Assembly (NCBI GenBank): GCA_002420005.1
Contig: DIHE01000157.1
Span: 18,296 to 82,295 of the forward strand
Direction of reading: 5' to 3'
DNA: 64,000 nucleotides
Source: Holophagales bacterium UBA5704
GTDB taxonomy: Bacteria; Acidobacteriota; Thermoanaerobaculia; Multivoradales; UBA5704
Part shown: piece by piece, positions 38,589-53,491 of the stretch
Numbering within the stretch: position 1 is the first letter of the stretch
Layout of the letters: each line of letters opens with the position of its first letter
Position numbers and translations under genes: made by a program
The notes under the pieces: generated by a model
Databases searched by the model: none
What the model was told of the DNA's origin: nothing
The model's input: the letters and a program-made list of their open reading frames with translations, nothing else

Positions 38589-40093
38589 AGCGATCCCCCG
38601 TTCTCTGGCTCGCCCTCGGCCTCTGGCTGACCTACCTGTGGACCTCGTCCGGAGGCCTGGAGACGAGCGATGCCGTGCTGCGCTACCTGACCGCCCGGTC
38701 GTGGATCGAAGGGCACGGCGGCGTCCTGGCCGCCGAGCTCGGCTGGAACGGCGGCGCCGTCCTCCCCGACGGGAGGGTGTACGCCTTTTTCGGCCCGCTC
38801 CAGTCGGTGCTCATGGTGCCGTTCCTGCTCGCCGCCCGAGCCCTGCCCGCGCCGGGCATGGACACCGGCGTCGTCGAGACCTTCGCCATCTGCCTCGGCC
38901 TCTTCCCGCTCCTCTCGGCCGGCGTGATCGCCCTGCTCTACCGGTCCCTGGGCCATCTCGGGGTGGCTCCGCGCGTCCGCCTCCTCACCTGCCTCGGCAT
39001 CGGACTGGGCAGCCTGTTCTGGCACTATGCCCGGATGGGCCAGGAAGAGAGCCTGGTGGCCTTCGGCTTCGCCCTCTGGCTCCTCGGCGCCACCCGCCTG
39101 ATCGCCGGCCTCCGCTCGCCCGCGCTGCTGATGGCCGCGGGCGCCGCGATTCCGCTCGCCACCCGCTGGGCGGCGGCGCCCCAGCTCGCCGTTCTCTGCG
39201 CCGCGACGCTCGTCCTGCTCTGGCGCCACCGCCGGCAGGTGTCGTTCCGCGATGTGGCCGCCGGGGCCGCCCTGGTGGCCGGTGTGGCCTCCCTGGTCCT
39301 GCTCTACAACCACGCCCGCTTCGGCGATCCGCTGCAGACCGGCTACCCGATCTGGTACGCCCACCAGGGCTATTCCATGTTCACCTTCGACAACTACGGC
39401 CGGCACTTCGCAGCCCTCCTGGCCAGCCCGTACCGCGGCCTGCTCTTCTATTCACCCATCGCCGTGGCGGCCCTCGCCGGGTGCTTTCTCCTGCGCACCT
39501 CCGACGAACGCCTGCTGGGCTTCGCGGCGGCCGGAGTGCTGGTGGCCACGCTCCTGTTCATCGCCGCCTTCCGCTTCTGGGCCGGCGGCCATTCCTGGGG
39601 GCCCCGCTTCCTCACCGCGCCCCAGGTCCTGCTGGCCCCCGCGCTCGCCGCCCTCATCGCCCGGGCGCCGCGGCGCGCCGCCTGGGCGGTGGCCCTCTGC
39701 GCCTCCCTGCAGATCTTCTCCACCGTGCTCCCTGCGTCCACCGAGGAATACGTGTGGTTCAACATCGATCGCTCCCAGCCCGGAGCCTGCAACGAATGGA
39801 GCTTCGCATGCACCGCGGTCCCTTCGCGCATCCCGCGCGGTCTCGCCGCCTTGGCGAACACCGCCGCCAACCGGCCCGGCGTGGCCCTGTCCGACCGCGC
39901 CCTCGTGGCGCCGGAGGTGGTCCTCGCCACCTCGGACTACCGCACCCTCTACTGGTGGCCGGTGCGGATCGCCTTCCGGCTCGGCCGTTTCCCCGCCTGG
40001 CTCGCCCTGCTCGCCTGCGCCGCCGGTCTCGCCGCCGCTGCGGCCTGCCTGGCGCGCGCCTGGCGGCTCTGCGGTGCAGAAGAAGCGAGGTGA
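38576..40093 (+). CDS. Polytopic membrane protein, GT-C-like (ArnT/PMT-type glycosyltransferase candidate)
   Basis: 505 aa with roughly 10 or more hydrophobic segments. An acidic first loop (SGGLETSDAV) follows TM1, as in GT-C enzymes. Overlaps the upstream gene by 13 nt. The family assignment is by architecture only. Confidence 0.55.
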   Translation: MRALKRSPVLWLALGLWLTYLWTSSGGLETSDAVLRYLTARSWIEGHGGVLAAELGWNGGAVLPDGRVYAFFGPLQSVLMVPFLLAARALPAPGMDTGVVETFAICLGLFPLLSAGVIALLYRSLGHLGVAPRVRLLTCLGIGLGSLFWHYARMGQEESLVAFGFALWLLGATRLIAGLRSPALLMAAGAAIPLATRWAAAPQLAVLCAATLVLLWRHRRQVSFRDVAAGAALVAGVASLVLLYNHARFGDPLQTGYPIWYAHQGYSMFTFDNYGRHFAALLASPYRGLLFYSPIAVAALAGCFLLRTSDERLLGFAAAGVLVATLLFIAAFRFWAGGHSWGPRFLTAPQVLLAPALAALIARAPRRAAWAVALCASLQIFSTVLPASTEEYVWFNIDRSQPGACNEWSFACTAVPSRIPRGLAALANTAANRPGVALSDRALVAPEVVLATSDYRTLYWWPVRIAFRLGRFPAWLALLACAAGLAAAAACLARAWRLCGAEEAR

Positions 40094-40097
40094 CGCC

Positions 40098-41114
40098 ATG
40101 ATCCGTATCGCCATCCTCGGCGCGGGCCATTGGGGCCCGAACCTCATCCGCAACTTCCATACCCACCAGGCGAGCGAGGTCGTCTGGGTGATCGACCGCG
40201 ACCCCGGACGCCTGGAGCTCGCCCGCTCCCGCTACCCCGACGTGCGCGTCGGGGCCGACCCGGCGGCGGCGTTCGACGATCCCGCGGTCGATGCGGTGGT
40301 CCTCGCCACGCCGACGGTGACCCACCACCCGCTCGCCGCCGCGGCGCTGCGCGCCGGCAAGCACGTCCTGGTCGAGAAGCCTCTCGCCACCCGCACCGAG
40401 GAGGCCGAGGAGCTCTGTGCCCTCGCCGACCGGCTCGGACGCATCCTCATGGTGGGGCATGTGTTCCTGTTCAACGGCGCCGTCCGGCAGATCAAGGAAG
40501 ACCTCGACGCCGAGCGCGTCGGCAAGGTCTTCTACCTCTCCATGCTGCGCACCAACCTGGGCCCCATCCGCAGCGACGTCAACGCCGCCTGGGACCTGGC
40601 GGCGCACGACGTGGCGATCGCCAACTACTGGCTGGGCGGCCCGCCGCTCGCCGCCGCGGCCCAGGGAGGCTCCTGGATCAACCCCGGCATCGAAGATGCC
40701 GTCTTCGCCAACCTCTGGTATCCAAACGGGGTGATGGCTCACCTTCACGTCTCCTGGCTGAGCCCGCGCAAGGTGCGCGACATCACCCTCGTCGGGGAGA
40801 AAGGCATGTTGACCTTCGACGACATGAATCTGCAAGAACCGGTTCGCCACTATGACAAAGGCGTGAGCGAAAAGCGCTCGGCGGGCTTCGTGGACACCTT
40901 CGCCTTGTTCCGCACCAGCATCCGCGAAGGCGCGGTGACGATCCCCCGGGTGTCGACCGGCGAGCCGCTCAAAGCCGAGTGCGACCATTTTCTCGACTGC
41001 ATCCACCGCGGCGTCCGTCCCCTGGCCGATGGGCGCAGCGGCCTCGACGCCGTCCGCGTCCTCGCCGCCCTCGACCGTTCGCTGCACGAAGAAGGCCGCA
41101 GGGTGGACGTATGA
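40098..41114 (+). CDS. Gfo/Idh/MocA-family NAD-dependent sugar oxidoreductase
   Basis: MIRIAILGAGHWGPN...VLVEKPLA...MVGHVF; 338 aa. Confidence 0.88.
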   Translation: MIRIAILGAGHWGPNLIRNFHTHQASEVVWVIDRDPGRLELARSRYPDVRVGADPAAAFDDPAVDAVVLATPTVTHHPLAAAALRAGKHVLVEKPLATRTEEAEELCALADRLGRILMVGHVFLFNGAVRQIKEDLDAERVGKVFYLSMLRTNLGPIRSDVNAAWDLAAHDVAIANYWLGGPPLAAAAQGGSWINPGIEDAVFANLWYPNGVMAHLHVSWLSPRKVRDITLVGEKGMLTFDDMNLQEPVRHYDKGVSEKRSAGFVDTFALFRTSIREGAVTIPRVSTGEPLKAECDHFLDCIHRGVRPLADGRSGLDAVRVLAALDRSLHEEGRRVDV

Positions 41115-42223
41115 GCGCCGCCCCGGCTGCGATTCCCCTGGTCGACCTCAAGGCGCAGCACGCCGAGATCGCCGAGGAGGTGGCGCGCGGCATGGCCCGG
41201 GTGATGGACGAGACCTCGTTCATCCTCGGTCCCGCCGTCCGCGCGTTCGAAGAAGCCTTCGCCCGCTTCTGCCAGGTTCCCCACTGCATCGGTGTGGGCA
41301 ACGGCACCGACGCGCTCGAATTCATCGTCCGCGCCGCGGGCCTCGGCCCGGGCGACGAGGTGCTCGTCCCGGCCAACACCTTCATCGCCACGGCGCTCGG
41401 GGTGCTGCGGGCCGGCCCGTCACCGGTGCTGGTGGATTGCGACGCCTGGCACCTGATGGACCCGGAACGGATCGAGGCGAAGATCGGGCCGCGCACGCGG
41501 GCGATCCTGCCGGTCCACCTCTACGGCCAGCTCGCCGACATGGAGGCGATCGGCGCGCTCGCCGCGGCGCACGGCCTGCTGCTGCTGGAAGATGCGGCCC
41601 AGTGCCAGGGAGCGCGCCGCCACGGCCGCCCGGCCGGCACCTTCGGCGCCGCCGCGGCCACCAGCTTCTACCCCGGCAAGAACCTGGGAGCCTACGGCGA
41701 CGCCGGAGCCGTGCTCACCACCTCGGACGATCTCGCCGCCCGCGTTCGCAAGCTGCGCAACTGGGGCAGCGAGCAGAAGTACCACCACCCCGAGATCGGC
41801 TTCAACTCCCGGCTCGACACCCTCCAGGCCGTGGTCCTCTCCGCCAAGCTCGCCCGCCTCGACGCCTGGAATGAAGCGCGCCGCCGGGCCGCCGCGCGCT
41901 ACGACGAGCTGCTGGCGGACGTGCCCGGTGTCGAGACCCCGGGCACCCTCCCCGGCAACGAGCACGTCTGGCACCTCTACGTGGTGCGGGTCCCCCGCCG
42001 CGACGCCGTCCTGGAGCGGCTCCAGGCGGCGGGGATCGGAGCGGGCATCCATTATCCCGTGCCGCTGCACCTGCACGGCGCCCTCTCCCATCTCGGCCAC
42101 CGGCGCGGCGACTTCCCCGTCGCCGAGAAAGCCGCGGCGGAGATCCTCTCGCTCCCCATGGACCCACACCTCACCGAAGACCGGCAGGCGCGGGTGGTCG
42201 ACGCGCTGCGGAGAGCGCTATGA
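41111..42223 (+). CDS. DegT/DnrJ/EryC1/StrS-family sugar aminotransferase
   Basis: GVGNGTDALE...SFYPGKNLGAYGDAG (PLP Lys)...FNSRLDTLQA...IHYPVPLH. 4 nt overlap with the upstream gene. Confidence 0.92.
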   Translation: MSAAPAAIPLVDLKAQHAEIAEEVARGMARVMDETSFILGPAVRAFEEAFARFCQVPHCIGVGNGTDALEFIVRAAGLGPGDEVLVPANTFIATALGVLRAGPSPVLVDCDAWHLMDPERIEAKIGPRTRAILPVHLYGQLADMEAIGALAAAHGLLLLEDAAQCQGARRHGRPAGTFGAAAATSFYPGKNLGAYGDAGAVLTTSDDLAARVRKLRNWGSEQKYHHPEIGFNSRLDTLQAVVLSAKLARLDAWNEARRRAAARYDELLADVPGVETPGTLPGNEHVWHLYVVRVPRRDAVLERLQAAGIGAGIHYPVPLHLHGALSHLGHRRGDFPVAEKAAAEILSLPMDPHLTEDRQARVVDALRRAL

Positions 42224-43089
42224 GCCCGTCCGTCCTCTACATGGCCTATGGCGAGATCGGCCGCTTCTGCCTCACCGAGATGCTCGCCGCCGGCTTCGAC
42301 GTCGTCGGGGTGTTCTGCCGCGCCGCCGACCGTGCCGAGCGCGACGACATTCCGTCCGTCTACACCGCAGCCCGGCGCGCCGGGCTGCACGTCTTCGGCG
42401 CCGTCGATCCGAGCGATCCGGCGTTTCTGGAGGAGGCCCGCGGGCTCGCTCCGGACCTCCTCCTGTCGGTCCAGTACGACCGCATCCTGAAACCGCCTCT
42501 CCTCGCCATCCCACGCCACGGCGCGTACAACCTCCACTTCGGGCCGCTGCCGCGCCTGCGCGGCTGCTTCCCCACCAAGTGGGCGATCCTGGAGAACGAG
42601 CCGGGAGGCGTCGCGTTCCATTGCATCGATCCGGGGATCGACACCGGCGACGTGATCGCCCGCTCCCTCGTCGCGCTCGCTCCGGACGAGACCGACCAGA
42701 CCCTCTACGGCAAGCTCGTGGAGGCCGGCAAGGCCCTGTTCCTGCAGCAGCTCGGCTGGATGCACGCCCTCACGCCGCCGCCCGCCCTGCCGCAGGAGGA
42801 GTCCCGGGCGTCCTACCACCCCAAGCAGATCCCCTATGGGGGCATGATCGACTGGAGCCGCGACGCCGCCTGGATCGAGCGCTTCATCCGCGCCTTCACC
42901 TTCCCGCCCTACCCGGCCGCCAAGGCCCTGCTGGAGGGGCGGGAGGTGCAGATCCGCGCCCCCGTGGCCACCGGTCCCGACCTGCCCGGCCTGGCGGCGG
43001 GCGCCGCGCAGCGGCACGGCGACGGCTCGGTCACCATCCAGTGCGGCGCGGGCAGCCTGACCGTGCCGGCCGGCGGAGTCCTCGCGTGA
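42220..43089 (+). CDS. Formyltransferase-fold protein (sugar N-formyltransferase candidate)
   Basis: GAYNLHFGPLPRLRG (N-x-H...R-G formyltransferase core) and IDPGIDTGDVI (catalytic Asp), 289 aa. Translationally coupled to the aminotransferase. Confidence 0.78.
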   Translation: MSPSVLYMAYGEIGRFCLTEMLAAGFDVVGVFCRAADRAERDDIPSVYTAARRAGLHVFGAVDPSDPAFLEEARGLAPDLLLSVQYDRILKPPLLAIPRHGAYNLHFGPLPRLRGCFPTKWAILENEPGGVAFHCIDPGIDTGDVIARSLVALAPDETDQTLYGKLVEAGKALFLQQLGWMHALTPPPALPQEESRASYHPKQIPYGGMIDWSRDAAWIERFIRAFTFPPYPAAKALLEGREVQIRAPVATGPDLPGLAAGAAQRHGDGSVTIQCGAGSLTVPAGGVLA

Positions 43090-43880
43090 AAGACCTGCCA
43101 CGGGAGGAGATCCTCGCCCTGATCGACGCCGCACCGGCCCCACCGCCGGAGCAGCGGGTGCGCTACCGCGGTCTCACCCTCTGCGTGGTCATGGCCTCCT
43201 GGAACGAGGCCGGCAAGGTGGGGCCGGGAGTGGCCGCGGTGCCCCGCGACCTGGTGGACACCGTCTGCGTGGTGGACAACGGCTCGGTCGACGCCACCGC
43301 GGCGGAAGCCCGGGCGGCCGGTGCCGTGGTGATCTCCCACCCGCGCAACCTGGGGGCCGGCGGCGGCTACCGGTCGGGCTACGTCTACGGCCGCCGCAAG
43401 GGGTTCGACCTGATCGTCGAGCTGGCCGGCGACAACCAGGACGATCCGGCCGACATCCGGCACGTCGTGGACACTCTGATCGACGGCGGCTACGACTACG
43501 TCCACGGCTCGCGCTGGATGGCCGGGGGCACGCGGGTCAACATGACGGTCTCGCGCTCCTACCTCACCCGCCTCTACTCGTTCCTCTTCCGCACCTTGTT
43601 CGGCTTCCCGGCGACCGATGCCACCAACGGGTTCCGGGTGTTCAAGAGCTCGCTGCTGGATCATCCGCAGATCGATCTGTGGCAGGAGTGGCTCATCCAG
43701 TATGAGCTGGAGCCGTATTTCTTCATCCAGGTGGTGCGGCTGGGCCACCGCGTGGGCGAGGCGCCGGTGCGCAAGATCTACCACCGGGAGATGAAGAAGA
43801 ACACCAAGATGGTCCCCATCAAGAGCTGGTGGTCCATCCTGCGCCCGCTCTTCCTCCTGCGGCTGGGCCTCCGGAAGTGA
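43086..43880 (+). CDS. Glycosyltransferase family 2, polyprenyl-phosphate sugar transferase-like (DPM1/ArnC-type)
   Basis: GTG at 43086 overlaps the upstream TGA. LCVVMASWNEAGKV..VCVVDNGSVDAT..ELAGDNQDDP..TDATNGFRV. The C-terminal segment is hydrophobic. Confidence 0.78.
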   Translation: MKDLPREEILALIDAAPAPPPEQRVRYRGLTLCVVMASWNEAGKVGPGVAAVPRDLVDTVCVVDNGSVDATAAEARAAGAVVISHPRNLGAGGGYRSGYVYGRRKGFDLIVELAGDNQDDPADIRHVVDTLIDGGYDYVHGSRWMAGGTRVNMTVSRSYLTRLYSFLFRTLFGFPATDATNGFRVFKSSLLDHPQIDLWQEWLIQYELEPYFFIQVVRLGHRVGEAPVRKIYHREMKKNTKMVPIKSWWSILRPLFLLRLGLRK

Positions 43881-43941
43881 GCCACGCCGCCCCGGCCGAG
43901 GTCGGGACGGCGGGCAGGAACCCTGCATCGTGGGCAAGGAT

Positions 43942-43983
43942 GATCCGGTTTCGCGCATTTTCGAGTTGCGCGTCACGATCCGG
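43942..43983. promoter_or_regulatory. Inverted repeat flanked by direct GATCCGG repeats upstream of the HTH-TPR gene (candidate operator)
   Basis: GATCCGGtttCGCGCAttttcgagtTGCGCGtcacGATCCGG lies 50-90 nt upstream of ATG 44034 in a locally lower-GC spacer. Confidence 0.25.
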
Positions 43984-44033
43984 TCCCCGGGAGCACTTGT
44001 CCTTTTGAAGCGCTTCTTTCCTGGAGGACCCAC

Positions 44034-45503
44034 ATGCCCGAACCGAAACCAACCCCGGAAGGGGCCACCCTGCGATTTTTCCGCTTCGCGGAGGGGCTGG
44101 CCGAGAGCCAGCTGGGCAAACCGAACGGATTGGCGGAACAGACGATCGGCCGCCTCGAAAACGGCAAGGGACCCCTCCCGGTCGGCCGGATTGTGAAGCT
44201 GCTGTCCCCGTGGAAGGTTCCGCGCGAGGCGATCGAGACCGCCTTGCTCGCCCTCGAGATATCCCGTCCACCGGCCGATCCCGGGGCACCCACCGCGCCG
44301 ACGGCCGGCGAACGTCTGGCGCTCCAGGCGGCCGCCGTCGCAGCCGGCACGGCCTCCCTCCGGGCCACCCGCACCGTGCTGACCCGGGAGAGCCACCGCC
44401 GCCATGCCCGGCGGCACCGGCGCTGGGCGCAGAAGATCTGGGCGCGCCTCGCGCGTCTGCCGGAGAAACCCCAGGAAGCGGAGATCCAGGCGCTGCTCGG
44501 GGAGCCGAAGAGCTGGGCCTTGGCGGAACGGCTGGCCTGGGCCTCCGAGATCGCCGCGGCGGATCGCGCCAGCGAAGCCTTGCGCCTGGCTCGGCTCTCT
44601 CTGCGCGTGGTGGCGGCGAGCCCCGGGCCGGAGCTCTGGCTTCTGCGGCTGCGCGGCGCCCTGGAGCCTTTTCACGGCAACGCCCTGCGGGTCTCCGGCG
44701 ACCTGCCGGCCTCCGAAGCGTCGTTCGACCTCGCCGACGATTGCTGGAAACGCGGGGCCGGCGGTGACCCCGGCCAGCTCCTCGACGGCAGGCGGCCGCT
44801 CGACCTGAAGGCTTCTTTGCTCCGCCAGCGCGGAAGATTCGACGAAGCGATCCAGTTGCTCGACCGCGCCCTCGCCGCAAGCCCACCGAAAGCAGCGGCG
44901 CGCCTGTTGATCAAGAAGGCAGCCACCTACATTCGGGCCGGGGAGTACAAGCTGGCTCTCGAAGTTCTGGATCAAGCGGAGCCGAAGATCGACGAGTGGG
45001 GTGAGCGGCGGCTTTTGCTGGTGCATCGCTTCAGCCGCGCGAACAGCCTGTGCCACCTGGACCGTTATGCTGATGCCGAAGCATTGTTGCCATTGGTTGA
45101 CACGCTGACCGCAGAACTGGGAAATGAGCTGGACAAGCAGAGGACCCGCTGGCTACTAGGGCGAACCTGTCGGGGCCTCAACCGCTGGGTTGAAGCGCTC
45201 GCTGCGCTGAGTAAGGTGCGGGCGTATTTCCGCGACAAGCAGATCGCCTACGACTACGCCTTGGCCAGCCTGGAAGTGGCGGAGATCTACCTGGAGCAGG
45301 GCCAGACCCGGCTCGTCCAAGCGCTGGCCGAGGAGATGCTATGGCTCTTCAATGGGCAGAAGGTTCACAAAGAGGCCCTGGCGGCACTGACACTTTTCTG
45401 CCGTGCCGCCGAGGCGGACGTGCTCGAGCCGGAGTGGACCCGGCACCTGATCAAGTACCTCTACCGGGCGCAGTACAAGCCTGAGCTACGGTTCGAGCCG
45501 TGA
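44034..45503 (+). CDS. Transcriptional regulator: N-terminal XRE-like helix-turn-helix, C-terminal TPR-like helical repeats
   Basis: GGAGGA lies 6 nt upstream of the ATG. The N terminus LRFFRFAEGLAESQLGKPNGLAEQTIGRLENGKGPLPVGRIVKLL fits the XRE HTH pattern. The C-terminal ~250 aa is made of helical A/L-rich repeats (e.g. GRFDEAIQLLDRALA, GEYKLALEVLDQA, RYADAEALLPLV, WVEALAALSKV). Confidence 0.65.
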   Translation: MPEPKPTPEGATLRFFRFAEGLAESQLGKPNGLAEQTIGRLENGKGPLPVGRIVKLLSPWKVPREAIETALLALEISRPPADPGAPTAPTAGERLALQAAAVAAGTASLRATRTVLTRESHRRHARRHRRWAQKIWARLARLPEKPQEAEIQALLGEPKSWALAERLAWASEIAAADRASEALRLARLSLRVVAASPGPELWLLRLRGALEPFHGNALRVSGDLPASEASFDLADDCWKRGAGGDPGQLLDGRRPLDLKASLLRQRGRFDEAIQLLDRALAASPPKAAARLLIKKAATYIRAGEYKLALEVLDQAEPKIDEWGERRLLLVHRFSRANSLCHLDRYADAEALLPLVDTLTAELGNELDKQRTRWLLGRTCRGLNRWVEALAALSKVRAYFRDKQIAYDYALASLEVAEIYLEQGQTRLVQALAEEMLWLFNGQKVHKEALAALTLFCRAAEADVLEPEWTRHLIKYLYRAQYKPELRFEP

Positions 45504-45516
45504 AGGCAGTTGTGTC

Positions 45517-45831
45517 TTAGCCGCCGCAACGCCCACTGGGGTCCATTTCGCACCCGTTGTCGAGGGTCTCCGGGTAAGCTCTTGGCGCGCAACGCCCGCT
45601 GGGGTCAACCTCGCACCCGTTGTCGAGGGTCGCCGGAGCCTGCCGCGGCGCACAGCCGCCGTCAGGGTCAAACTCGCACCCGTTGTCGCCCCAGGCGGTG
45701 GTGAGGAAGGTCCAGAGGTCACCGAGGAAGCCCCAGGGCGCCGGGGTGGCGGGCTCGGCGGCGTGGAGGGGTGGGGCCGCGAGGAGCAGAGTGAGGACGA
45801 GGAGGCCGGTTTTCGTGAGAGGACGGACCAT
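45517..45831 (-). CDS. Small secreted peptide precursor (104 aa) with three tandem Cys-loop repeats
   Basis: ATG at 45831 with GGAG 6 nt upstream (minus strand ctGGAGcttgtcATG). Sec-type signal MVRPLTKTGLLVLTLLLAAPPLHA/AEP. Then an aromatic stretch WGFLGDLWTFLTTAWG, followed by DNGCEFDPDGGCAPRQAPATL, DNGCEVDPSGRCAPRAYPETL and DNGCEMDPSGRCGG-stop. I verified the translation codon by codon. The stop lies 13 nt from the convergent regulator stop. Confidence 0.6.
   Translation of the reverse strand: MVRPLTKTGLLVLTLLLAAPPLHAAEPATPAPWGFLGDLWTFLTTAWGDNGCEFDPDGGCAPRQAPATLDNGCEVDPSGRCAPRAYPETLDNGCEMDPSGRCGG
45520..45687 (-). repeat. 63-bp (21-codon) in-frame tandem repeat inside the peptide gene, 2.7 copies
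   Basis: Units at 45625-45687, 45562-45624 and 45520-45561 (truncated). Each encodes D-N-G-C-E-x-D-P-(D/S)-G-(G/R)-C. Confidence 0.85.
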
Positions 45832-45964
45832 GACAAGCTCCAGACGGGACGCGCTCCGCGGGAGCCTCCATGGCCGCCGGGACGCCTCCCGGCCTCCAGA
45901 TTGACAGGACCCGGCGCGGAAACCGGACGAAACGACCCCACAACGTAGGCTTTTCGAGCGGTGA

Positions 45965-46556
45965 CGGGCGGTTGGGGCAAGACCGGCAGGCGGGCTCCGC
46001 CCGAGGTCTGAGAGACTCAGACGTCGGGCGGAGTGGCCCGGATCGCGGGCGGAGAGGTCTGGACGTCGGGCGGGGGTACCCCCGCCCACGGGCGGAGTGG
46101 CCCGGATGTCGGGCGGAGGGGCTCCGCCCGCGAGCGGAGGGACCCGGACCTCGGGCGGAGGGTCCCGGATCGCGGGCGGAGGGACCCCTCCCCGCGGGCG
46201 GAGCAGCCCGGATCTCGGGCGGAGCCTCTCCGCCCGCGGGCGGAGGGACCCCGGCTCTCGGGCGGGGAGACTCGGATCGAGAGCGGGGAGGCCCGGATCG
46301 AGAGCGGGGAGGCGTGGACCGAGAGCGGAGAGGCGTGGACCGAGGGCGGAGAGGCCCGGGCCGAGAGCCGGCCGACCCGGGCCGAGACCCCGGAGGCCCC
46401 TCCCGAGAGCGGCGAGGCGCGCACCGAGAGCCGGGAGACCGGCACCGAGGGCGGAGCGGCGAGGATCGGGAGCGGGGAGGCCCGGACCTGGAGCCGGGAG
46501 GCTCGGATCGCGGGCGGATGGGCCACGGCCGAGGGCGGAGTGGCCCGGATCGAGGG
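45965..46556. repeat. Degenerate tandem array, ~28 units of 21-22 bp (core CGGGCGGAG / GAGAGCGGNGAGGCCCGGATC)
   Basis: The GCGG/GCCG anchor recurs at 46028, 46049, 46070, 46092, 46113, 46134, 46155, 46176, 46198, 46219, 46240 and 46262. From 46262 to 46535 it recurs every 21 nt exactly. Three units are 22 nt. All six frames are open across the array. Confidence 0.85.
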
Positions 46557-46584
46557 AAAGTACGACGACGGTCCCTCCCTGCCG

Positions 46585-46779
46585 TCAATCGCCCGTGCCC
46601 TCCCACCCACGGTCAGCGGTCCACCAGACCCCTTCGCCGGCACCGGGCGCAATCAGGTCCGCTGCATCGGCGGGGAGGCCTTCGGCCCAAGCGGCGAAAC
46701 CGGCGTCGGCCACCTCGAGGCTCTCCGGATGGGGCTGCCGGAGCGATTGCCGAAGCTGGTCGGTGCGGGCATTCGGCAT
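46585..46779 (-). CDS. Hypothetical small protein (64 aa); coding status uncertain
   Basis: ATG at 46779 is preceded on the minus strand by AGGAGAcggagccATG, a strong SD. It lies 52 nt downstream of the GT-A-like gene on the same strand and stops ~30 nt before the repeat array. An overlapping plus-strand frame has similar third-position GC, so this is a weak call. Confidence 0.3.
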   Translation of the reverse strand: MPNARTDQLRQSLRQPHPESLEVADAGFAAWAEGLPADAADLIAPGAGEGVWWTADRGWEGTGD

Positions 46780-46831
46780 GGCTCCGTCTCCTGACCGATC
46801 ATCCTCTGAATCCTTCTGAGTATACCTGCTT

Positions 46832-47695
46832 TCACGACCCCAGCCGCCGCTTCAGCTCGGCAGCCGCCAGGCTCCACCAGGGGCAGCCCGGCGCCGGCAC
46901 CGTCGTGAGCGCCACCGGCTCGGCTCCGGCCGCAGCGCGGGCCCACCCGGCGTAGAGCGGCAGCAGGGCACGCCGGGGGGTGACGAAATGCAGGGCGACG
47001 AGACCCTCCGGCGGCGTGAACCGCTCGCCCGGCAGCCGCACCCGGGACGGATCGACGAACCGGCAGCCGTGCCGCGCACCGAGGAGAGCCCAGGCGGTCT
47101 GCTCCACCCAGACCGGCGTCCGGTGGTACGCGGGATGCGCCAGGAACCACTCCAGCAGATCCGCGTCATACGCCGCGCGGGGAAACCCTACGATCCCGGT
47201 GTTGACGAACCCCGCGAGACGCAGGCGCGGCTCGCGCAGCACCTGCCACGAACGCACGGAGTAGGCGTGCTGGGTGTCGTGCAGGAACACCGTCTCGCCC
47301 TCGGCCCCCCACAAGCCGGAGAACGGCCGGAAGAAGAGGACGTCGGTGTCGCAGAACAGCAGGCGTTCCTCGGCACCGAGCACCGCCGCATCGACCAGCT
47401 TGAGCCCGAGCGGGTTCGTGCGCCGAAGCTCCCGCGTGGCCGGGCGGGCGGCCAGATGCTCCGCCAGACGCTCCTCGGCGTCGCCCCGCGCCACGATCTC
47501 CGGCTCCGCCAGACCCTCCGCCAACCGCGCCCGGTCCTCCCCGGTCAACGTCCCGTCGTCATGCAGCCGCAAGCGCACCGGCTCGGCCGCATGGGCCAGC
47601 AGGCTCCCCAGACAGAGCAGCGCCATGTCCACGTGAGAGTGGCCGAGGAGGGAGGTCACGACCAGCGGTGCCTGCACCCTCGGACCATACCACAT
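46832..47695 (-). CDS. GT-A-fold glycosyltransferase-like protein (GT8-like DxD)
   Basis: N-terminal strand PLVVTSLLGH, LLFCDTDVLFFRPF (DxD) and FVNTGIVGFPR. 287 aa from ATG 47695, and that ATG lies inside direct repeat R1. Confidence 0.55.
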   Translation of the reverse strand: MWYGPRVQAPLVVTSLLGHSHVDMALLCLGSLLAHAAEPVRLRLHDDGTLTGEDRARLAEGLAEPEIVARGDAEERLAEHLAARPATRELRRTNPLGLKLVDAAVLGAEERLLFCDTDVLFFRPFSGLWGAEGETVFLHDTQHAYSVRSWQVLREPRLRLAGFVNTGIVGFPRAAYDADLLEWFLAHPAYHRTPVWVEQTAWALLGARHGCRFVDPSRVRLPGERFTPPEGLVALHFVTPRRALLPLYAGWARAAAGAEPVALTTVPAPGCPWWSLAAAELKRRLGS

Positions 47696-47723
47696 ATACT
47701 CGCACGTATAAGGAGACCAACCG
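47638..47723. repeat. 86-bp direct repeat, copy R1
   Basis: Matches 48208-48293 with 6 mismatches (counted by eye). The offset is exactly 570 nt at both ends. It contains the 5' end of the GT-A-like gene and a degraded copy of the vapBC promoter, operator and SD. Confidence 0.9.
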
Positions 47724-47838
47724 AGCCGCGGAGCATAACCGGAGCTGCCTTGACTTCGAAGAGCCGGCAGGTGATACTTTTCATGGAGGCTCGGCCCAGG
47801 GGCTGCTGTTTGGTGGCTCCGAAGGCATTGCCTCCTTT

Positions 47839-48105
47839 TTATTCTCCAGCCTTCCTGGCCTCGTATGGATCCGGCACGAAAACGATGCCGTAGGAGTTGT
47901 AGCTGGCTCCTTCGCGGTACCCCTCAATTCGGAACTGAAGCTGAGTGAGCCAACTACCGTAGTTGTCGGTGATCTCCGGCCGGCCAGGCGCGTCCATCCC
48001 TCGACGCGGCAGACGAAAACCCCAGTTCACACAATAGATTGCCAGGTCTGCGGCTTGGATCGGGTAGGCCATGTCAGACGAAACGAAAAACGGAGCTGGA
48101 ACGAT
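47839..48105 (-). pseudogene. C-terminal fragment of a DUF3800-family gene
   Basis: ..FFVSSDMAYPIQAADLAIYCVNWGF.. resembles the C-terminal Q-x-ADL motif region of DUF3800. There is no N-terminal DESG-type region, and the upstream part of ORF 47839..48207 looks like non-coding read-through. The segment is visibly lower in GC than its surroundings. Confidence 0.4.
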
Positions 48106-48207
48106 CCAGGTCGACCGGAAACGCCCCCGCGAACTTCGTAAGGCATGGTTCGATGGTCGTGGCCGCTCTCGTCCAGAAACAGCAGATAGCTCATACCGAA
48201 ACCTCAA

Positions 48208-48293
48208 AGTGGCCGGCGAGGGAGGTCACGACCTGCGGTGCTTGCACCCTCGAACCATACCACATATACTCGCACGTATAAGGAGGCCAACCG
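48208..48293. repeat. 86-bp direct repeat, copy R2
   Basis: See R1. This copy carries the intact promoter/SD of vapB and a 24-codon dead-end duplicate of the GT-A-like N terminus (MWYGSRVQAPQVVTSLAGH...stop). Confidence 0.9.
48242..48270 (+). promoter_or_regulatory. Sigma-70-type promoter of vapBC with overlapping palindromic operator
   Basis: TTGCAC (48242-48247) - 17 nt - TATACT (48265-48270). Palindrome TATAC-tcgcac-GTATA at 48265-48280. SD AGGAGG at 48281-48286 lies 7 nt before TTG 48294. Confidence 0.5.
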
Positions 48294-48524
48294 TTGAGCC
48301 AGCTCACCCTCTACCTGGATGCAGAGACCGAGAGCCGCATGAAGGCGGCAGCCAAGGCGTCCGGCGTCTCCCTCAGCCGCTGGGTGGCGGGCCTGATCCG
48401 CGAGAAGACGGCGAACCGGTGGCCCGATTCGGTCGCGCAGCTGGCGGGCGCCTGGGCCGATTTTCCGACTGCGGAAGAGATCCGCGCCGGCCTGGGCGAG
48501 GACGCGCCGCGCGAGCCCCTCTGA
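48294..48524 (+). CDS. vapB: Ribbon-helix-helix antitoxin (VapB-type)
   Basis: 76 aa with a TTG start. LTLYLDAETESRMKAAAKASGVSLSRWVAGLIREK is a CopG/RHH pattern. The stop overlaps the ATG of the PIN toxin gene. Confidence 0.75.
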   Translation: MSQLTLYLDAETESRMKAAAKASGVSLSRWVAGLIREKTANRWPDSVAQLAGAWADFPTAEEIRAGLGEDAPREPL

Positions 48525-48916
48525 TGTATGCACTCGACACCAACATCCTGAGCTACTTCTTCAAGGGGATCGGACAGGTGGCAGAGCGCCTGCTGGCGAC
48601 GCCGCCTTCCGAGATCGCCATTCCCTCGGTCGTCCTCTTCGAGCTGGAATTCGGGCTGGAACGGTCGAGCCGCGCCGCCCAGCGGCGCGAACAGCTTCAG
48701 GAGCTGCTGTCCCTTCTGACGATTCTACCCTTCGGATCGGCAGAGGCCCGGGCGGTGGCGGTGATCCGCGCGGATCTGGAGCGCGCCGGGACCCCGATCG
48801 GCCCTTATGATCTGTTGATCGCCGGGACCGCCCTCCATCATGGAGCCGTCCTGGTCACCCACAACACGAAGGAGCTCGGGCGCGTGCGTGGGTTGAAGCT
48901 GGAAGACTGGACCTGA
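48524..48916 (+). CDS. vapC: PIN-domain toxin (VapC-type ribonuclease)
   Basis: MYALDTNILSYFFKG (first acidic residue)...FELEFG...YDLLIAGTALHHGAVLVTHNTKE; 130 aa. ATG at 48524 overlaps TGA 48522-48524. Confidence 0.88.
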   Translation: MYALDTNILSYFFKGIGQVAERLLATPPSEIAIPSVVLFELEFGLERSSRAAQRREQLQELLSLLTILPFGSAEARAVAVIRADLERAGTPIGPYDLLIAGTALHHGAVLVTHNTKELGRVRGLKLEDWT

Positions 48917-48934
48917 CACGGAACGAGGAAACGC

Positions 48935-49954
48935 ATGGATTGGAATCAAAAGAAAGTCCTGGTCACCGGGGGCGCGTCGTTCATCAGCTCCCACCTGATC
49001 GACCTGTTGGTGGCCAAAGGGGTCCGGGACGTCCGGGTGGTCGATGACCTGACGAGCGGCAAGCTCGCCAACATCCAGGGCCACATCGACGCCGGGGTGG
49101 TCGAATTCCGCCGCGAGGACCTGCTGGCCCCGGGGGCGGCCCAGAGGGCGGTCGAGGGCGTCCACGTCGTCTTCCACCTCGCCGCCATCCACGGCGGGCG
49201 CGGCTACGTCGACCTGCACCAGGCCGCCTGCGCGCAGAACCTGGCGATGGACGGGATGCTGATCAAGGCCGCCCACGAGGCCGGCGTCGAGAAGTTCGTC
49301 TTCGCCTCCTCCGGCTGCGTCTATCCCAACTTCCTCCAGGGTGACGTGACGAAGGAGCTGTACCTCACCGAGGAGATGGTCGGGCCGCCCTACGACGCCG
49401 ACAACATGTACGGCTGGGCGAAGCTGATGACCGAGATGACGCTCCAGGCCTACCACCGGGATTTCGGGCTCAAGGCGGCCTCCTGCCGGTTCTTCACCGT
49501 GTACGGCGAGCGCGGCGTCGAGAACCATGCGGTGATCGCGATGATCGCCCGCGCCTTCGTGCGCCAGAACCCGTTCGAGGTGTGGGGGGACGGCACCCAG
49601 ATCCGCAACTGGACCTACGTCGGCGACATCGTCTCCGGCATGGTGCTCTGCGCCGAGAAGATCGACGACGGCACCGCGGTCAACCTCGGCACCGAGGAGC
49701 GCACACGGGTGATCGACGCGGTGCACGAGGTGCTGCGCTACACCGGCCAGGAGGCCGAGATCAAGCTCCTCCCGCACATGCCCACCGGGCCGCTCAACCG
49801 GGTGGCGAGCAACCGCCTGGCGCGCGAGCTCCTGGGCTGGGAGCCGCAGATGAAGTTCATCGACGGCCTGCACCGCACCATCGACTGGTACTTCGCCTCG
49901 CGGCAGCGCGAGGTGGTGAGCGGCTACCTGCAGGAGATGCTCACCGAACGGTAG
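48935..49954 (+). CDS. NAD-dependent epimerase/dehydratase (extended SDR)
   Basis: VLVTGGASFISSHLIDLL (Rossmann fold) and YGWAKLMTE (YxxxK); 339 aa. Confidence 0.88.
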   Translation: MDWNQKKVLVTGGASFISSHLIDLLVAKGVRDVRVVDDLTSGKLANIQGHIDAGVVEFRREDLLAPGAAQRAVEGVHVVFHLAAIHGGRGYVDLHQAACAQNLAMDGMLIKAAHEAGVEKFVFASSGCVYPNFLQGDVTKELYLTEEMVGPPYDADNMYGWAKLMTEMTLQAYHRDFGLKAASCRFFTVYGERGVENHAVIAMIARAFVRQNPFEVWGDGTQIRNWTYVGDIVSGMVLCAEKIDDGTAVNLGTEERTRVIDAVHEVLRYTGQEAEIKLLPHMPTGPLNRVASNRLARELLGWEPQMKFIDGLHRTIDWYFASRQREVVSGYLQEMLTER

Positions 49955-49968
49955 GTGGGCCCGCGCCG

Positions 49969-51138
49969 ATGGGTGGACCCACCGCGGCGACGGCCGGCGG
50001 CACGGAGACGACGCATTTTCCGGGGCTCGACAGCCTCCGGTTCTACGCCGCCTTCTGCGTGCTGATCGGCCACATTCCGCTCAACCAGCAGAGCCGGGGC
50101 CTGCCCGATCCGCACAGCGGCGCCATCTTCTTCCGCGGCGCTCCGGCCGTCTCCTTCTTCTTCACCCTGAGCGGCTTCCTCATCACCTGGCTCCTGCTGC
50201 GCGAGATCCGCAAGACCGGCGGCGTGCGCGTGCGCAGCTTCTACCTGCGCCGCATCTGCCGCATCTGGCCGCTCTATTTCCTCATCGTCTTCTTCGGTCT
50301 CGCCTTCTACAACGTGCTCCTGCCCCGCCTCGGCATCGCCTATCCGGTCGAGTACGGCATCCCGTTCGCCCTGCTCCTCTACACCTTCCTCCTGCCCAAC
50401 CTGATGAACAGCCTGTACACCGTGGGCGGCATCCTGAACCCGCTCTGGTCGATCGGGGTGGAGGAACAGTTCTATCTCGCCTGGGCGCCCACGGTGAAGC
50501 GGTTCCACCGCGCCCTGCCGCGGATCTGCTGGGGAATCCTCGCGGTCTCGTTGACCGTGTTCTGCCTGAGCTCCCTGGGCTTCTTCGGCCGCGCGGCGAT
50601 GCAGAAATTCACCGGCCAGCTGGAGGTGCACTTCATGGCTGCGGGAGCGCTCGCCGCCTGGGCGCTCTTCCACCACCGCGAGCGGCTGCTCGCCCTGCCC
50701 GTCTTCGCCCACCGGGCGGTCCAGGTCCTCCTCGCGGCCCTGCTCCTCGACTACTACTTCACCACCTTCATCCGCTGGGGCTGGTTCGGCACCGAGATCG
50801 TCCAGCTCGTCCTCTACACCTGGCTCATCGTCAACGTCGCCGCCAACCCGCAGAACGTGCTGCCGGTCGAGAACCGGGTCACCGACTACCTGGGCACGAT
50901 CTCCTACGGCTTCTACATGGTCCATATGATCGCGGTGTACGCCACCTCGTACGCCTTCCTGCGCTGGCGCTGGTGGGAAGGCGGGTCGCTCGCGGTCTAC
51001 GTCCTCGCCTACTACGGCCTGGCGATCGGCCTCACGGTCGCGCTCGCCTCCGCCTCGTACTTCTTGTTCGAGAAGCCGTTCCTGCGCCTCAAGGACCGCC
51101 GCTTCACCGTCGTCGCGAGCGCGCCGGGGGCCGGGTGA
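49969..51138 (+). CDS. Acyltransferase family 3 membrane protein (O-acyltransferase)
   Basis: Internal ATG at 49969. FPGLDSLRFYAAFCVLIGH...FFFTLSGFLIT...RRICRIWPLYF, and multiple TM segments. Confidence 0.85.
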   Translation: MGGPTAATAGGTETTHFPGLDSLRFYAAFCVLIGHIPLNQQSRGLPDPHSGAIFFRGAPAVSFFFTLSGFLITWLLLREIRKTGGVRVRSFYLRRICRIWPLYFLIVFFGLAFYNVLLPRLGIAYPVEYGIPFALLLYTFLLPNLMNSLYTVGGILNPLWSIGVEEQFYLAWAPTVKRFHRALPRICWGILAVSLTVFCLSSLGFFGRAAMQKFTGQLEVHFMAAGALAAWALFHHRERLLALPVFAHRAVQVLLAALLLDYYFTTFIRWGWFGTEIVQLVLYTWLIVNVAANPQNVLPVENRVTDYLGTISYGFYMVHMIAVYATSYAFLRWRWWEGGSLAVYVLAYYGLAIGLTVALASASYFLFEKPFLRLKDRRFTVVASAPGAG

Positions 51139-52244
51139 GATCGCTCGTCTACCTGTGCGACTGGCTGCCGCCGGACTTCGGCGCCGTCGGCCAATACAGC
51201 CTCCTGTTCGCCCGCGAACGGGCCGCGGCGGGCGAGGACGTCGTGCTCGCCGGCCTCTCCTCCACCGCCGGCTCGATCGCCGAGGAAGCGGTCGGAAGCG
51301 GCCGGCTGCGCATCGTCCGCCTGCAGGCGCCGGTCTATGACAAGGCGGACTTCCGGCGCCGGGCCTGGTGGACGCTGCGCACCAACGGCGCCCTCCTCCT
51401 CGCCCTGCGCCGCGAGATCCGCCGCGCCGACGAGGTGCTGTTCACCGGCAGCCCGCCGTTTCTCATCCATCTGCTCGCGCCGCTCAATCTCCTGCTGCGC
51501 CGGCGCCTGACCTACCGGATCACCGATTTCCACCCCGAGTGCCTGATGGCGGAGCTGGAGCGGGTTCCGCTGCCCCTGCGCCTTTTCCACCGCTGGACCG
51601 TCTTCCTGCGCCGCCGGATCGACCGCTTCGAGGTGCTCGGGGAGGACCAGCGGGAGCGCCTCCTTGCCCTCGGCATCGAAGCCGGGCGGATCGTCCTCAA
51701 GCGCGATCCCTCGCCGGTCGCGATTCCGGCGGGCACCGAGCCCTTGCCGGTCCCCGAGGAGCTCGCCGGCCGCACCGTCCTCCTCTACTCCGGCAACTTC
51801 GGCGTCGCCCACGACCATGAGACCTTCGTCGAAGGCTACCGGCGCCACCACCGGGAAGGCTCCGGCCGCGTCGGGCTGTGGCTCAACGCCACCGGCGCCA
51901 AGGCCGACCGGGTGGAAGAGATCCTGCGGAGGGAGAACCTGCCGGTGCACCGCAGCCGGCCGGTCCCCCTGGAGCTGCTGCCGCGCCTGCTGGTGACTCC
52001 GCACGCCCACCTGATCACGCTGCGCGACGCCTTCGTCGGCTACGTGCTGCCGTCCAAGGTGCATGGCTGCATCCAGTCCGGCCGCACCGTCCTCTACGTG
52101 GGGAGCGACCGCTCCGACGTCCACCTTCTGTGCCGCCAGGGGCTCCCGCCCGGCCGCTACCACCGTGCCGCGGTGGGCGATCCGGCGGCGGTGGCCACGG
52201 CCCTGGAGGCTCTGGGGGCTTGCGCTTCGCCCGGTTTCGGCTAA
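51135..52244 (+). CDS. Glycosyltransferase (GT4, WcaI-like)
   Basis: GTG at 51135 overlaps the upstream TGA. VYLCDWLPPDFGAVGQYS...LLYSGNFGVAHD...VLPSKVHGCIQSGRTVLYVG. Confidence 0.7.
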   Translation: MRSLVYLCDWLPPDFGAVGQYSLLFARERAAAGEDVVLAGLSSTAGSIAEEAVGSGRLRIVRLQAPVYDKADFRRRAWWTLRTNGALLLALRREIRRADEVLFTGSPPFLIHLLAPLNLLLRRRLTYRITDFHPECLMAELERVPLPLRLFHRWTVFLRRRIDRFEVLGEDQRERLLALGIEAGRIVLKRDPSPVAIPAGTEPLPVPEELAGRTVLLYSGNFGVAHDHETFVEGYRRHHREGSGRVGLWLNATGAKADRVEEILRRENLPVHRSRPVPLELLPRLLVTPHAHLITLRDAFVGYVLPSKVHGCIQSGRTVLYVGSDRSDVHLLCRQGLPPGRYHRAAVGDPAAVATALEALGACASPGFG

Positions 52245-52259
52245 CATACACACAAGTCG

Positions 52260-53447: not shown

Positions 53448-53491
53448 TACGTCCGGGTTTTCCCGGAGCCGGTCACGGTCATAATGGTGCC

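Follow-up and report, generated by a model that had tools for sequence, protein, structure and literature searches.

A multicopy cassette of a helix-turn-helix/tetratricopeptide repeat regulator and a predicted secreted Cys-loop peptide in Acidobacteriota, a candidate peptide-sensing system

Can a regulator gene that converges on the gene for a small secreted peptide form a receptor/propeptide-like pair outside the Firmicutes? This question is raised by a locus in a 64,000-nucleotide (nt) stretch of DNA from Holophagales bacterium UBA5704 (assembly GCA_002420005.1, contig DIHE01000157.1, positions 18,296 to 82,295 of the forward strand), here referred to as the window. A first-pass annotation of the window noted a protein of 489 amino acids (aa) with an XRE-type helix-turn-helix (HTH) domain and a C-terminal part resembling tetratricopeptide repeats (TPRs), the gene for which ends 13 nt from the stop codon of a convergent 104-aa open reading frame (ORF), and compared the pair with the receptors and propeptides of RRNPP quorum sensing. 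The ORF coordinates and the domain evidence described below agree with this description of the two genes, and the genome indeed lies outside the Firmicutes, as it belongs to Acidobacteriota, a diderm phylum. Here we describe that the window contains one copy of a self-contained chromosomal cassette, which exists in multiple copies and is restricted to the Thermoanaerobaculia and Holophagales of the Acidobacteriota. The features of this copy are listed in Table 1.

The association between the two genes was scored from both sides. Eighty metagenome loci were fetched with the peptide alone, and pairing was scored where at least 700 nt of downstream sequence was present; all 53 such loci had a convergent regulator homologue, and 52 of the 59 loci with enough upstream sequence also had an HTH gene divergent from the peptide gene. 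In the reverse direction, 69 loci were collected with regulators that are 34 to 61% identical to the window protein, and at least 59 of these contained a Cys-loop peptide gene, which was convergent in 53 and divergent in 6, with the convergent peptide stop codon typically being located 10 to 100 nt from the regulator stop codon. Degenerate, partly Cys-less loops were seen in 5 of the 10 remaining loci. The pairing of regulator and peptide is far beyond chance. The presence of the small ORF next to regulator homologues had been named by the first-pass annotation as a test of its proposal and is borne out by these counts; regulator paralogues without an adjacent peptide gene, which it had named as evidence to the contrary, are not seen as a rule, the common paralogues bringing their own peptide genes.

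Outside the cassette, the gene neighborhood varies between loci. Clustering of 1,858 flanking ORFs from 100 loci revealed no recurrent transporter, protease, modifying enzyme or other family beyond the regulators; the other recurrent elements were antisense ORFs and, at differing positions in 22 loci, a generic PAS histidine kinase. The conserved unit is the cassette itself, and since no other gene family is linked to it, only general export and processing machinery would be needed, as in RRNPP systems. This finding also bears on the possibility that the locus encodes a bacteriocin, or an antimicrobial peptide resembling ribosomally synthesized and posttranslationally modified peptides (RiPPs), together with its regulators. 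While the product is small, secreted, Cys containing and repetitive, has a layout reminiscent of multicore precursors and occurs as many diversified paralogues, no recurrent modifying enzyme, dedicated exporter or immunity gene was present in the 100 loci, a Sec signal is found in place of a leader peptide, and neither PADLOC, Pfam nor NCBIfam models were matched. We therefore consider an antimicrobial peptide locus to be very improbable.

The divergent upstream gene codes for an N-terminal HTH of a subtype distinct from that of the convergent regulator and occurs as a full HTH-TPR protein (~480 to 540 aa), as an HTH-only protein (~128 to 170 aa) and in intermediate, possibly decaying forms. 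Cassettes are also found as tandem arrays in locus L084 (~9480 to 14900) as well as in L022, L066 and L103. In these arrays, a regulator gene converges on one peptide gene while diverging from the following one, and L084 carries three identical leader hairpins that are 2.5 kb apart.

Both protein families are large. A single-sequence search with the peptide returned 57 homologues, a profile search returned 325, and an exhaustive hidden Markov model search returned 1,761 clusters at 50% identity; protein-level conservation reaches down to ~30 to 40% identity with an invariant motif, and every named homologue is annotated as "hypothetical protein." For the regulator, more than 241 homologues were found, as were 318 loci in one-genome-per-species collections, and the best 79 of these 318 loci all belong to Thermoanaerobaculia, Holophagales or Acidobacteriota metagenome-assembled genomes. 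These 79 loci are distributed over 43 assemblies, with up to 5 of them per assembly. No relatives of the cassette were detected in plasmid and phage collections, and no PADLOC anti-phage defense model matched the regulator or the peptide, with the short HTH protein of the related locus L003 showing only generic HTH similarity. Very GC-rich DNA has long ORFs in all frames, and the small ORF might thus have been a chance open frame that is an accidental neighbor of the regulator gene. Its protein-level conservation, the 1,761 clusters, the near-perfect synteny and the conserved Shine-Dalgarno (SD) sequence and leader hairpin refute this idea, which retains practically no probability, and by the measure of sequence conservation the small ORF is a real gene. 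Taken together, an unannotated family of predicted secreted peptides with ~1,760 clusters at 50% identity, its putative cognate regulator family and a leader RNA element are newly defined here.

The first-pass annotation credited the small ORF with a good SD sequence, a Sec signal and a repetitive, Cys-containing C terminus, all of which we recovered as a GGAG motif, recognizable n, h and c regions and 63-nt repeats, respectively. The predicted prepeptide starts with MVRPLTKTGLLVLTLLLAAPPLHA, followed by AEP, and both inspection by eye and the helix at residues 3 to 18 of an AlphaFold2 (AF2) model are consistent with a Sec signal for signal peptidase I that consists of a positively charged n-region, a 15-residue hydrophobic core and the LHA-AEP junction, a layout that is the same across the peptide alignments. 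In a set of 139 distinct family members of 72 to 144 aa (mean, 109), this Sec-type signal is followed by a variable spacer, an amphipathic helix with the consensus LWSFLTxxW, and tandem loops. The loop unit has the consensus [DK][NAE]-G-C-x-[ILVA]-D-P-x-G-x-C (C-x7-C) and is present two to six times per peptide, with 2, 3, 4, 5 and 6 units being found in 42, 69, 25, 2 and 1 sequences, respectively. The second Cys is kept in 332 of 399 units, and the units are joined by P/S/T/A-rich linkers of 3 to ~20 residues. The window copy contains three DNGCExDPxGxC loops (C-x7-C), and the underlying DNA consists of three 63-nt repeats (Tandem Repeats Finder period of 63, 2.6 copies, 80% matches). Only the signal and Trp helices were predicted by AF2, and the repeats were unstructured (pLDDT of <50), which is the picture expected of loops strung along a flexible chain and not of a compact domain. 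Across the loop's four variable positions, similarity is 0.42 within a precursor versus 0.20 between precursors, a value that none of 1,000 permutations reached.

No Pfam, NCBIfam or PADLOC model specifically matched the window peptide. DUF6799 (PF20606) was considered and rejected, as the window peptide scored 11.8 bits against a gathering cutoff of 26.8 bits; within the family, weak partial matches to this model were seen in 11 of 33 members (best E value, 3.1e-5), the best score being 18.7 bits and confined to profile positions 25 to 41. Each repeat unit of the window copy (45526 to 45687, reverse strand) holds both an Asn-Gly and an Asp-Pro bond, the two most chemically labile peptide bonds, and many paralogues contain IDPHG, which is reminiscent of the autocatalytic GD/PH cleavage motif. 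Nonenzymatic processing of the Cys loops is conceivable.

With these features, the Cys-loop protein might be a periplasmic or secreted effector without feedback that is switched on by the HTH-TPR proteins in response to another ligand. It could act as a multiheaded binder, for example, a protease inhibitor whose nine-residue loops are closed by disulfides, as a metal or Ca2+ binder, or as a component of the envelope or matrix; the C-x7-C loop may resemble Bowman-Birk-type inhibitory loops. Binding proteins typically contain tandem modules whose number varies, the precursor is bigger than known pheromone precursors, and the paralogues show high conservation of the loop core and of the Trp helix, as would be expected of a module for structure or binding; conservation of the regulator's TPR domain is likewise high. 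However, an effector role leaves unexplained why one or two dedicated regulators adjoin each paralogous effector, in many copies per genome, and why the variable positions of the loops go together in one and the same precursor. In addition, the repeats come out as unfolded in the prediction, the P/S/T/A-rich linkers between them differ widely in length, and the peptide has no Pfam or NCBIfam domain match. On balance, we regard an effector without feedback as a somewhat unlikely explanation.

The second test named by the first-pass annotation was whether the C terminus of the regulator truly consists of TPRs, and Pfam and the predicted fold both say that it does. Matches around residues 256 to 318 exceeded the Pfam cutoffs for TPR_12 (39.8 bits; cutoff, 30.1), TPR_19 (39.3 bits; cutoff, 25) and TPR_2 (37.5 bits; cutoff, 27), and an AF2 model built on the family alignment (pLDDT, 89.2; pTM, 0.75) is all helical, with a five-helix HTH, a long helix and about eight TPR-like hairpins within the limits given in Table 1. 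As a single sequence, the HTH of the window regulator stays under the Pfam cutoff and is a weak match to TIGR03070 in NCBIfam (E = 0.0018; residues 10 to 58). A family profile of 32 members, compared with PDB sequences, matched the XRE HTH structures of C.BclI, ClgR and HipB (E values of 1e-6 to 1e-5; residues 4 to 76) and also the P22 C2 repressor, and many homologues carry PF01381/PF13560. The N-terminal five-helix HTH of the Cro/C1 type, by which the XRE family is recognized, is therefore seen in the family profile, in the Pfam domains of the homologues and in the model. An Ala-rich segment between the HTH and the TPRs (aa 93 to 108) was considered as a transmembrane segment and rejected, being charged and variable in homologues and modeled inside the long soluble helix; because no transmembrane segment is present, the regulator was treated as cytoplasmic.

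Foldseek searches with the regulator model gave LGN/Pins as the best match (E = 2e-6) and also matched domain III of MalT and Rap with bound pheromone (E of ~5e-4, TMt of ~0.6). LGN/Pins and MalT domain III share with the regulator a right-handed superhelix of about eight TPR-like hairpins (E values of 2e-6 to 5e-4, TMt of 0.44 to 0.65), and the inner groove of LGN binds extended peptides. LGN is, however, a eukaryotic polarity protein and MalT a STAND ATPase regulator, and at 13 to 16% identity the likeness is one of fold class only. As modeled, the TPR fold of the regulator is of the peptide-groove type, its best structural matches being peptide-binding TPR superhelices. Across 112 paralogous regulators (median identity, 38%), mean column conservation was 0.57 to 0.63 in the TPRs versus 0.46 in the HTH, and the polar residues N216, R219, R370, D407 and E447 are conserved.

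A further conserved part of the cassette is the leader of the peptide gene. Nearly all peptide genes are preceded by an imperfect hairpin of ~46 nt with the apex GCGGCC-AUGGA-GGCCGC, located between a GGCAC(C)ATAC-like motif and the SD sequence AAAGGAG. A covariance model was built from 24 hairpin copies and used to search 1.18 Mb on both strands (E ≤ 0.01); it returned 38 matches, each of them directly upstream of a Cys-loop peptide gene and on the same strand, with the window hairpin (55.2 bits) being joint top of the 38. In the hairpin alignment, 79.9% of cells pair versus 40 to 49% with slid partners, the covariation score is 0.228 versus 0.180 in shuffles (reached by 0 of 500), and compensatory changes are present at 11 of 18 pairs. 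Both G·U and U·G pairs are frequent on the sense strand, which argues for an RNA structure and not a DNA palindrome. RNAalifold, when run on plain MAFFT alignments, recovered only 4 to 9 inner pairs because bulges shift the outer stem, and it was replaced by a hand-drawn structure, the covariance model and pair counting. No Rfam 15 family matched at an E value of ≤10 in 45400 to 46700, and none reached its gathering score across the whole window.

Within a leader subfamily of 11 loci (L013, L014, L015, L018, L106, L112, L114, L120, L126, L132 and L138), the 130-nt leader is 94% identical on average, compared to 81 to 82% for the peptide ORF and 79% for the regulator. The leader is more identical than the proteins, which suggests that the control region is under stronger constraint. 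The hairpin stem holds GGAGG and CCUCC beside the real SD sequence, and its role might be in transcript stability, as a translational switch or as a protein-binding site. The leader hairpin probably adds a posttranscriptional or stability control that is common to all paralogues.

Control at the DNA level is less sharply delineated. The first-pass annotation placed a candidate operator at 43942 to 43983, where GATCCGGT indeed occurs twice, 35 nt apart, together with CGCGCA-N9-TGCGCG. However, at least one such inverted repeat arose in 46 of 100 shuffles, and the right arm and the first GATCCGG copy are not conserved in the closest orthologue(s), and we rejected this element as a specific operator. 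The upstream regions of orthologous regulators share a loose promoter-like block, GTGTC[CA] followed after ~20 nt by GGCAAC(T)TATA, which in the window reads GCGTCA..GCACTTGTCC. As for a sigma-54 promoter ahead of the peptide gene, CTGGCAC is found in many paralogues, but the expected -12 GC is absent in most of them and the window has TGTCAA; this candidate was likewise rejected. Neither consensus sigma-70 promoters nor intrinsic terminators related to the pair were found in 43700 to 46700, and the gap between the two stop codons contains no terminator-like hairpin. Some subfamilies have the palindrome GCCGC-N3-5-GCGGC ahead of the peptide promoter and others have GGTGAA-N4-6-TTCACC, with a modest enrichment (best arm of 5.3 nt versus 4.4 nt in shuffles). 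We regard these palindromes as a lead, and as better operator candidates than the element at 43942 to 43983.

How does the cassette compare with known peptide-sensing systems? Quorum sensing by cytoplasmic TPR receptors and peptides has been described as a trait of Gram-positive Bacillota and of their phages and plasmids (PMC10075063, PMC9765709), and its signature as given by Bernard et al. comprises a Sec signal, a receptor of 250 to 500 aa, TPRs, adjacent genes and a propeptide of 10 to 100 aa (PMC10075063). Four of these five features are found in the cassette, namely, the Sec signal, the receptor length, the TPRs and the adjacency of the genes; the propeptide of the window copy exceeds the size limit by 4 aa, and the family extends to 144 aa. 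Like the RRNPP(A) systems of Bacillota (PlcR-PapR, NprR-NprX, Rap-Phr, Rgg-SHP, PrgX and AimR-AimP), the cassette places the gene for a putatively cytoplasmic TPR receptor beside that for a small Sec propeptide, occurs as many paralogous pairs per genome and has no dedicated export or import genes, and its regulator carries an XRE-type HTH, as do PlcR, NprR, Rgg and PrgX. It differs from these systems in that the host is a diderm member of the Acidobacteriota, in that the propeptide is longer and has C-x7-C loops of the disulfide type, in contrast to the known pheromones, which are short and linear and carry no modification, and in that the genes are convergent, usually with another HTH gene on the flank and with a leader RNA hairpin that is conserved.

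Precursors with tandemly duplicated pheromones are known among Rap-Phr systems (PMC11343458; PMC9765709). In those of phi3T and phi105 (PMC11343458), as in the cassette, one secreted precursor contains several similar putative mature units that would be released by extracellular proteases. The Rap-Phr units, however, are linear, C-terminal and 5 to 7 residues long, in contrast to 2 to 6 twelve-residue Cys-loop units with linkers, and they are received by a Rap phosphatase or anti-activator and not by an HTH regulator. The Alo peptide-receptor systems of Paenibacillus differ in belonging to Bacillota and in having another receptor and peptide family (PMC7425212). The prepeptide also compares with a eukaryotic precursor, as an analogy of layout only. 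In yeast prepro-alpha-factor, a signal peptide and a pro-region precede tandem pheromone copies with spacers, which are processed by Kex2 and sensed by a G protein-coupled receptor.

These likenesses do not extend to a common descent that could be detected. Among the 60 best of 131 PDB profile matches (E ≤ 1), there was no RRNPP TPR domain, and Rgg (5w4m, 4yv6) was matched via its HTH only (E of ~1e-3); the regulator matched no RRNPP-specific NCBIfam or Pfam model, a fold search of BFVD gave no AimR-like match, and Foldseek ranks Rap below LGN and MalT. By these comparisons, a generic HTH and generic TPRs are all that the regulator detectably shares with Rap, Rgg, NprR, PlcR, PrgX or AimR. The receptor/propeptide-like pair of the first-pass annotation is thus supported as to its architecture and the conservation of the pairing, and it is supported neither as to homology with RRNPP families nor as to the operator. 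The literature searched contained no link of Acidobacteria, or of any diderm bacterium, to RRNPP-type systems. Compared to known RRNPP-like circuits, what appears to be new is the phylum, the peptide chemistry, the three-gene layout and the leader RNA.

The reading that we favor is that the cassette is a receptor/propeptide autoregulatory circuit that works like RRNPP signaling, with another peptide family and in a diderm phylum, and we give this reading slightly less than an even chance. From the observed architecture and its conservation, we infer export, disulfide closure, cleavage, sensing and an output at the DNA level. The prepeptide would be exported by Sec, and its loops would be closed by disulfide formation in the periplasm. 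Housekeeping proteases would then cut the flexible linkers, giving rise to several similar small loop peptides, and the adjacent regulator or regulators would sense one product (a loop, or possibly the Trp helix or the C-terminal tail) in the concave TPR groove. Binding would alter the interaction of the regulator with DNA at the peptide promoter and at its own promoter.

Several observations weigh against such an autoregulatory circuit. The Acidobacteriota have an outer membrane, and an intercellular signal must exit and reenter, with no linked transporter being found in the 100 loci; in addition, the cytoplasm would reduce a disulfide bond acquired in the periplasm. Paralogues show strong conservation of the loop core (GC..DP.G.C) and of the Trp helix, and the TPRs are more conserved than the HTH; this pattern is as compatible with a shared role in structure or binding as with a diversification of pherotypes. 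The higher similarity of loops within a precursor could be explained by recent tandem duplication alone. In sequence, the regulator is related to RRNPP proteins through a generic HTH only, and its TPR fold is nearer to eukaryotic LGN than to Rap. Finally, precursors of 72 to 144 aa exceed typical RRNPP propeptides, and the genes are convergent and not codirectional.

The problem of the outer membrane would not arise if the TPRs bound the prepeptide before its export, through the signal peptide or the Trp helix, in the manner of TPR secretion chaperones that also serve as coregulators. No transit across the outer membrane or reimport would be needed, the most conserved nonrepeat segment of the peptide is an amphipathic Trp-rich helix, which is a typical ligand of a TPR groove, and this helix and the TPR surface are both conserved across paralogues. 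A cassette of this kind would report export capacity or its own output and not cell density. However, no HTH-TPR fusion is known to act in such a manner, the tandem Cys loops and their diversification are left unexplained, and the Trp helix follows the predicted signal peptidase site and is hence part of the exported product. Both the sensing of unexported prepeptide and a function in reporting export capacity or output seem improbable to us.

Table 1. Features of the cassette copy and its immediate surroundings in the window
Feature	Positions	Strand	Details and evidence
Regulator gene	44034..45503	+	489 aa; XRE-type HTH aa 8-77, long helix aa 91-139, ~8 TPR-like hairpins aa 144-479
Regulator HTH, predicted DNA-binding domain, aa 8-77	44055..44264	+	family profile, AF2 model, Pfam domains of homologues
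Regulator TPR sensor-like domain, aa 144-479	44463..45470	+	Pfam, AF2 model, Foldseek, paralogue conservation
Gap between the two convergent stop codons	45504..45516	.	13 nt
Prepeptide gene, 104 aa from ATG	45517..45831	-	signal peptide, Trp-rich helix, three Cys-loop repeats
Sec-type signal peptide, aa 1-24, predicted cleavage between LHA and AEP	45760..45831	-	read from sequence; AF2 helix 3-18; A-x-A-type site conserved in peptide alignment
Conserved Trp-rich amphipathic helix, aa 33-48, WGFLGDLWTFLTTAWG	45688..45735	-	peptide alignments; AF2 helix 33-48
Cys-loop unit 1, DNGCEFDPDGGC, aa 49-60	45652..45687	-	
Cys-loop unit 2, DNGCEVDPSGRC, aa 70-81	45589..45624	-	
Cys-loop unit 3, DNGCEMDPSGRC, aa 91-102	45526..45561	-	
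SD sequence GGAG, 6 nt before the peptide ATG	45838..45841	-	(A)AAGGAG conserved in leader alignment
GC-rich RNA hairpin in the peptide leader, apex GCGGCC-AUGGA-GGCYSC	45845..45890	-	covariance model, covariation counts, minimum free energy of -36.6 kcal/mol
Degenerate palindromic box AGCCTAC-gtt-GTGGGGTC	45934..45951	-	counterpart of box upstream of other peptide genes
Tandem-repeat array of 21 nt, ~25 copies, GC-rich unit CGGGCGGAGAGGCCCGGACCG	46025..46556	.	fills the slot of the divergent second HTH gene in most related loci
Region upstream of the regulator	43942..44033	+	earlier candidate operator (not supported); partly conserved blocks GCGTCAcGATCCGGtcc and GCACTTGTcc; SD sequence GGAGGA 44023-44028

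The window copy itself departs from the usual three-gene layout. No tblastn signal for a second regulator or a remnant thereof was obtained upstream of its peptide gene, and the slot is filled by the array of 21-nt repeats, which was seen only in loci of this genome, is open in all frames and is probably not part of a working cassette. L003, a closely related contig that comes from a different sample, shares 98.6% nucleotide identity with the window (9875 to 11112 of L003 versus 44720 to 45957 of the window). The homology extends from 126 nt upstream of the peptide ATG, ending at 45957 of the window, to the end of the contig inside the regulator gene. Upstream of this point the two differ, L003 having an HTH_31 gene and, as the counterpart of the degenerate box of the window, the perfect palindrome AGCCCCC-gtt-GGGGGCT; genes for nSTAND/NACHT-type ATPases adjoin. 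This second context suggests that the cassette has recombined or is mobile, or that a single population carries two copies of it. Judged from the related loci, the window copy is a derived, two-gene version, with the second HTH gene and the upstream palindrome apparently having been lost or having decayed. The usual second divergent HTH gene, its loss from the window copy and the leader RNA hairpin were all missing from the first-pass annotation.

Public annotation places a 361-aa ORF at 45870 to 46955 (forward strand), which we rejected as a probably spurious, GC-driven call because it starts in the CCATGG apex of the hairpin, crosses the 21-nt repeats, has no Pfam match and was called differently on a sister contig. 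A 287-aa ORF of the public record at 46832 to 47695 (reverse strand) adjoins the repeat array and has no Pfam match either. A small gene with a PIN domain gene behind it, resembling a VapBC toxin-antitoxin pair (~48294 to 48916, forward strand; 6916 to 7538 of L001), lies between the cassette and polysaccharide biosynthesis genes. More broadly, the cassette is located inside a cluster for cell envelope polysaccharides (~36000 to 55000) with genes for GT2, a formyltransferase, a DegT aminotransferase, GT9, GT4/WecA-like, acyltransferase_3 and epimerase proteins, and a sigma-54 activator gene adjoins this cluster. Such a context is not common to other cassettes.

In summary, the cassette provides testable reagents in the form of synthesizable 12-residue loops, a soluble TPR domain and a 130-nt control region, and it is found in a diderm, mostly uncultured phylum of soil bacteria. 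It is a doubtful proposition, although one with far-reaching implications, that Thermoanaerobaculia and Holophagales use a native form of cell-cell signaling in which a Sec-exported precursor would carry 2 to 6 disulfide-closed, nine-residue loop pheromones, a cytoplasmic TPR receptor would sense them in private channels, and a leader RNA would provide a shared layer of control. If this holds true, such private channels would number in the dozens per community, each formed by a diversified receptor/peptide cassette, and peptide quorum sensing by cytoplasmic receptors would extend to Gram-negative-type bacteria. The occurrence of a conserved and expanded cassette of this architecture in such a phylum can be read in two ways. 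Either the design arose independently or is far older than thought, so that the Acidobacteria, which are abundant in soil and socially poorly understood, may talk with peptides, or TPR-HTH regulators are coupled to small secreted proteins in a second, so far unrecognized way.

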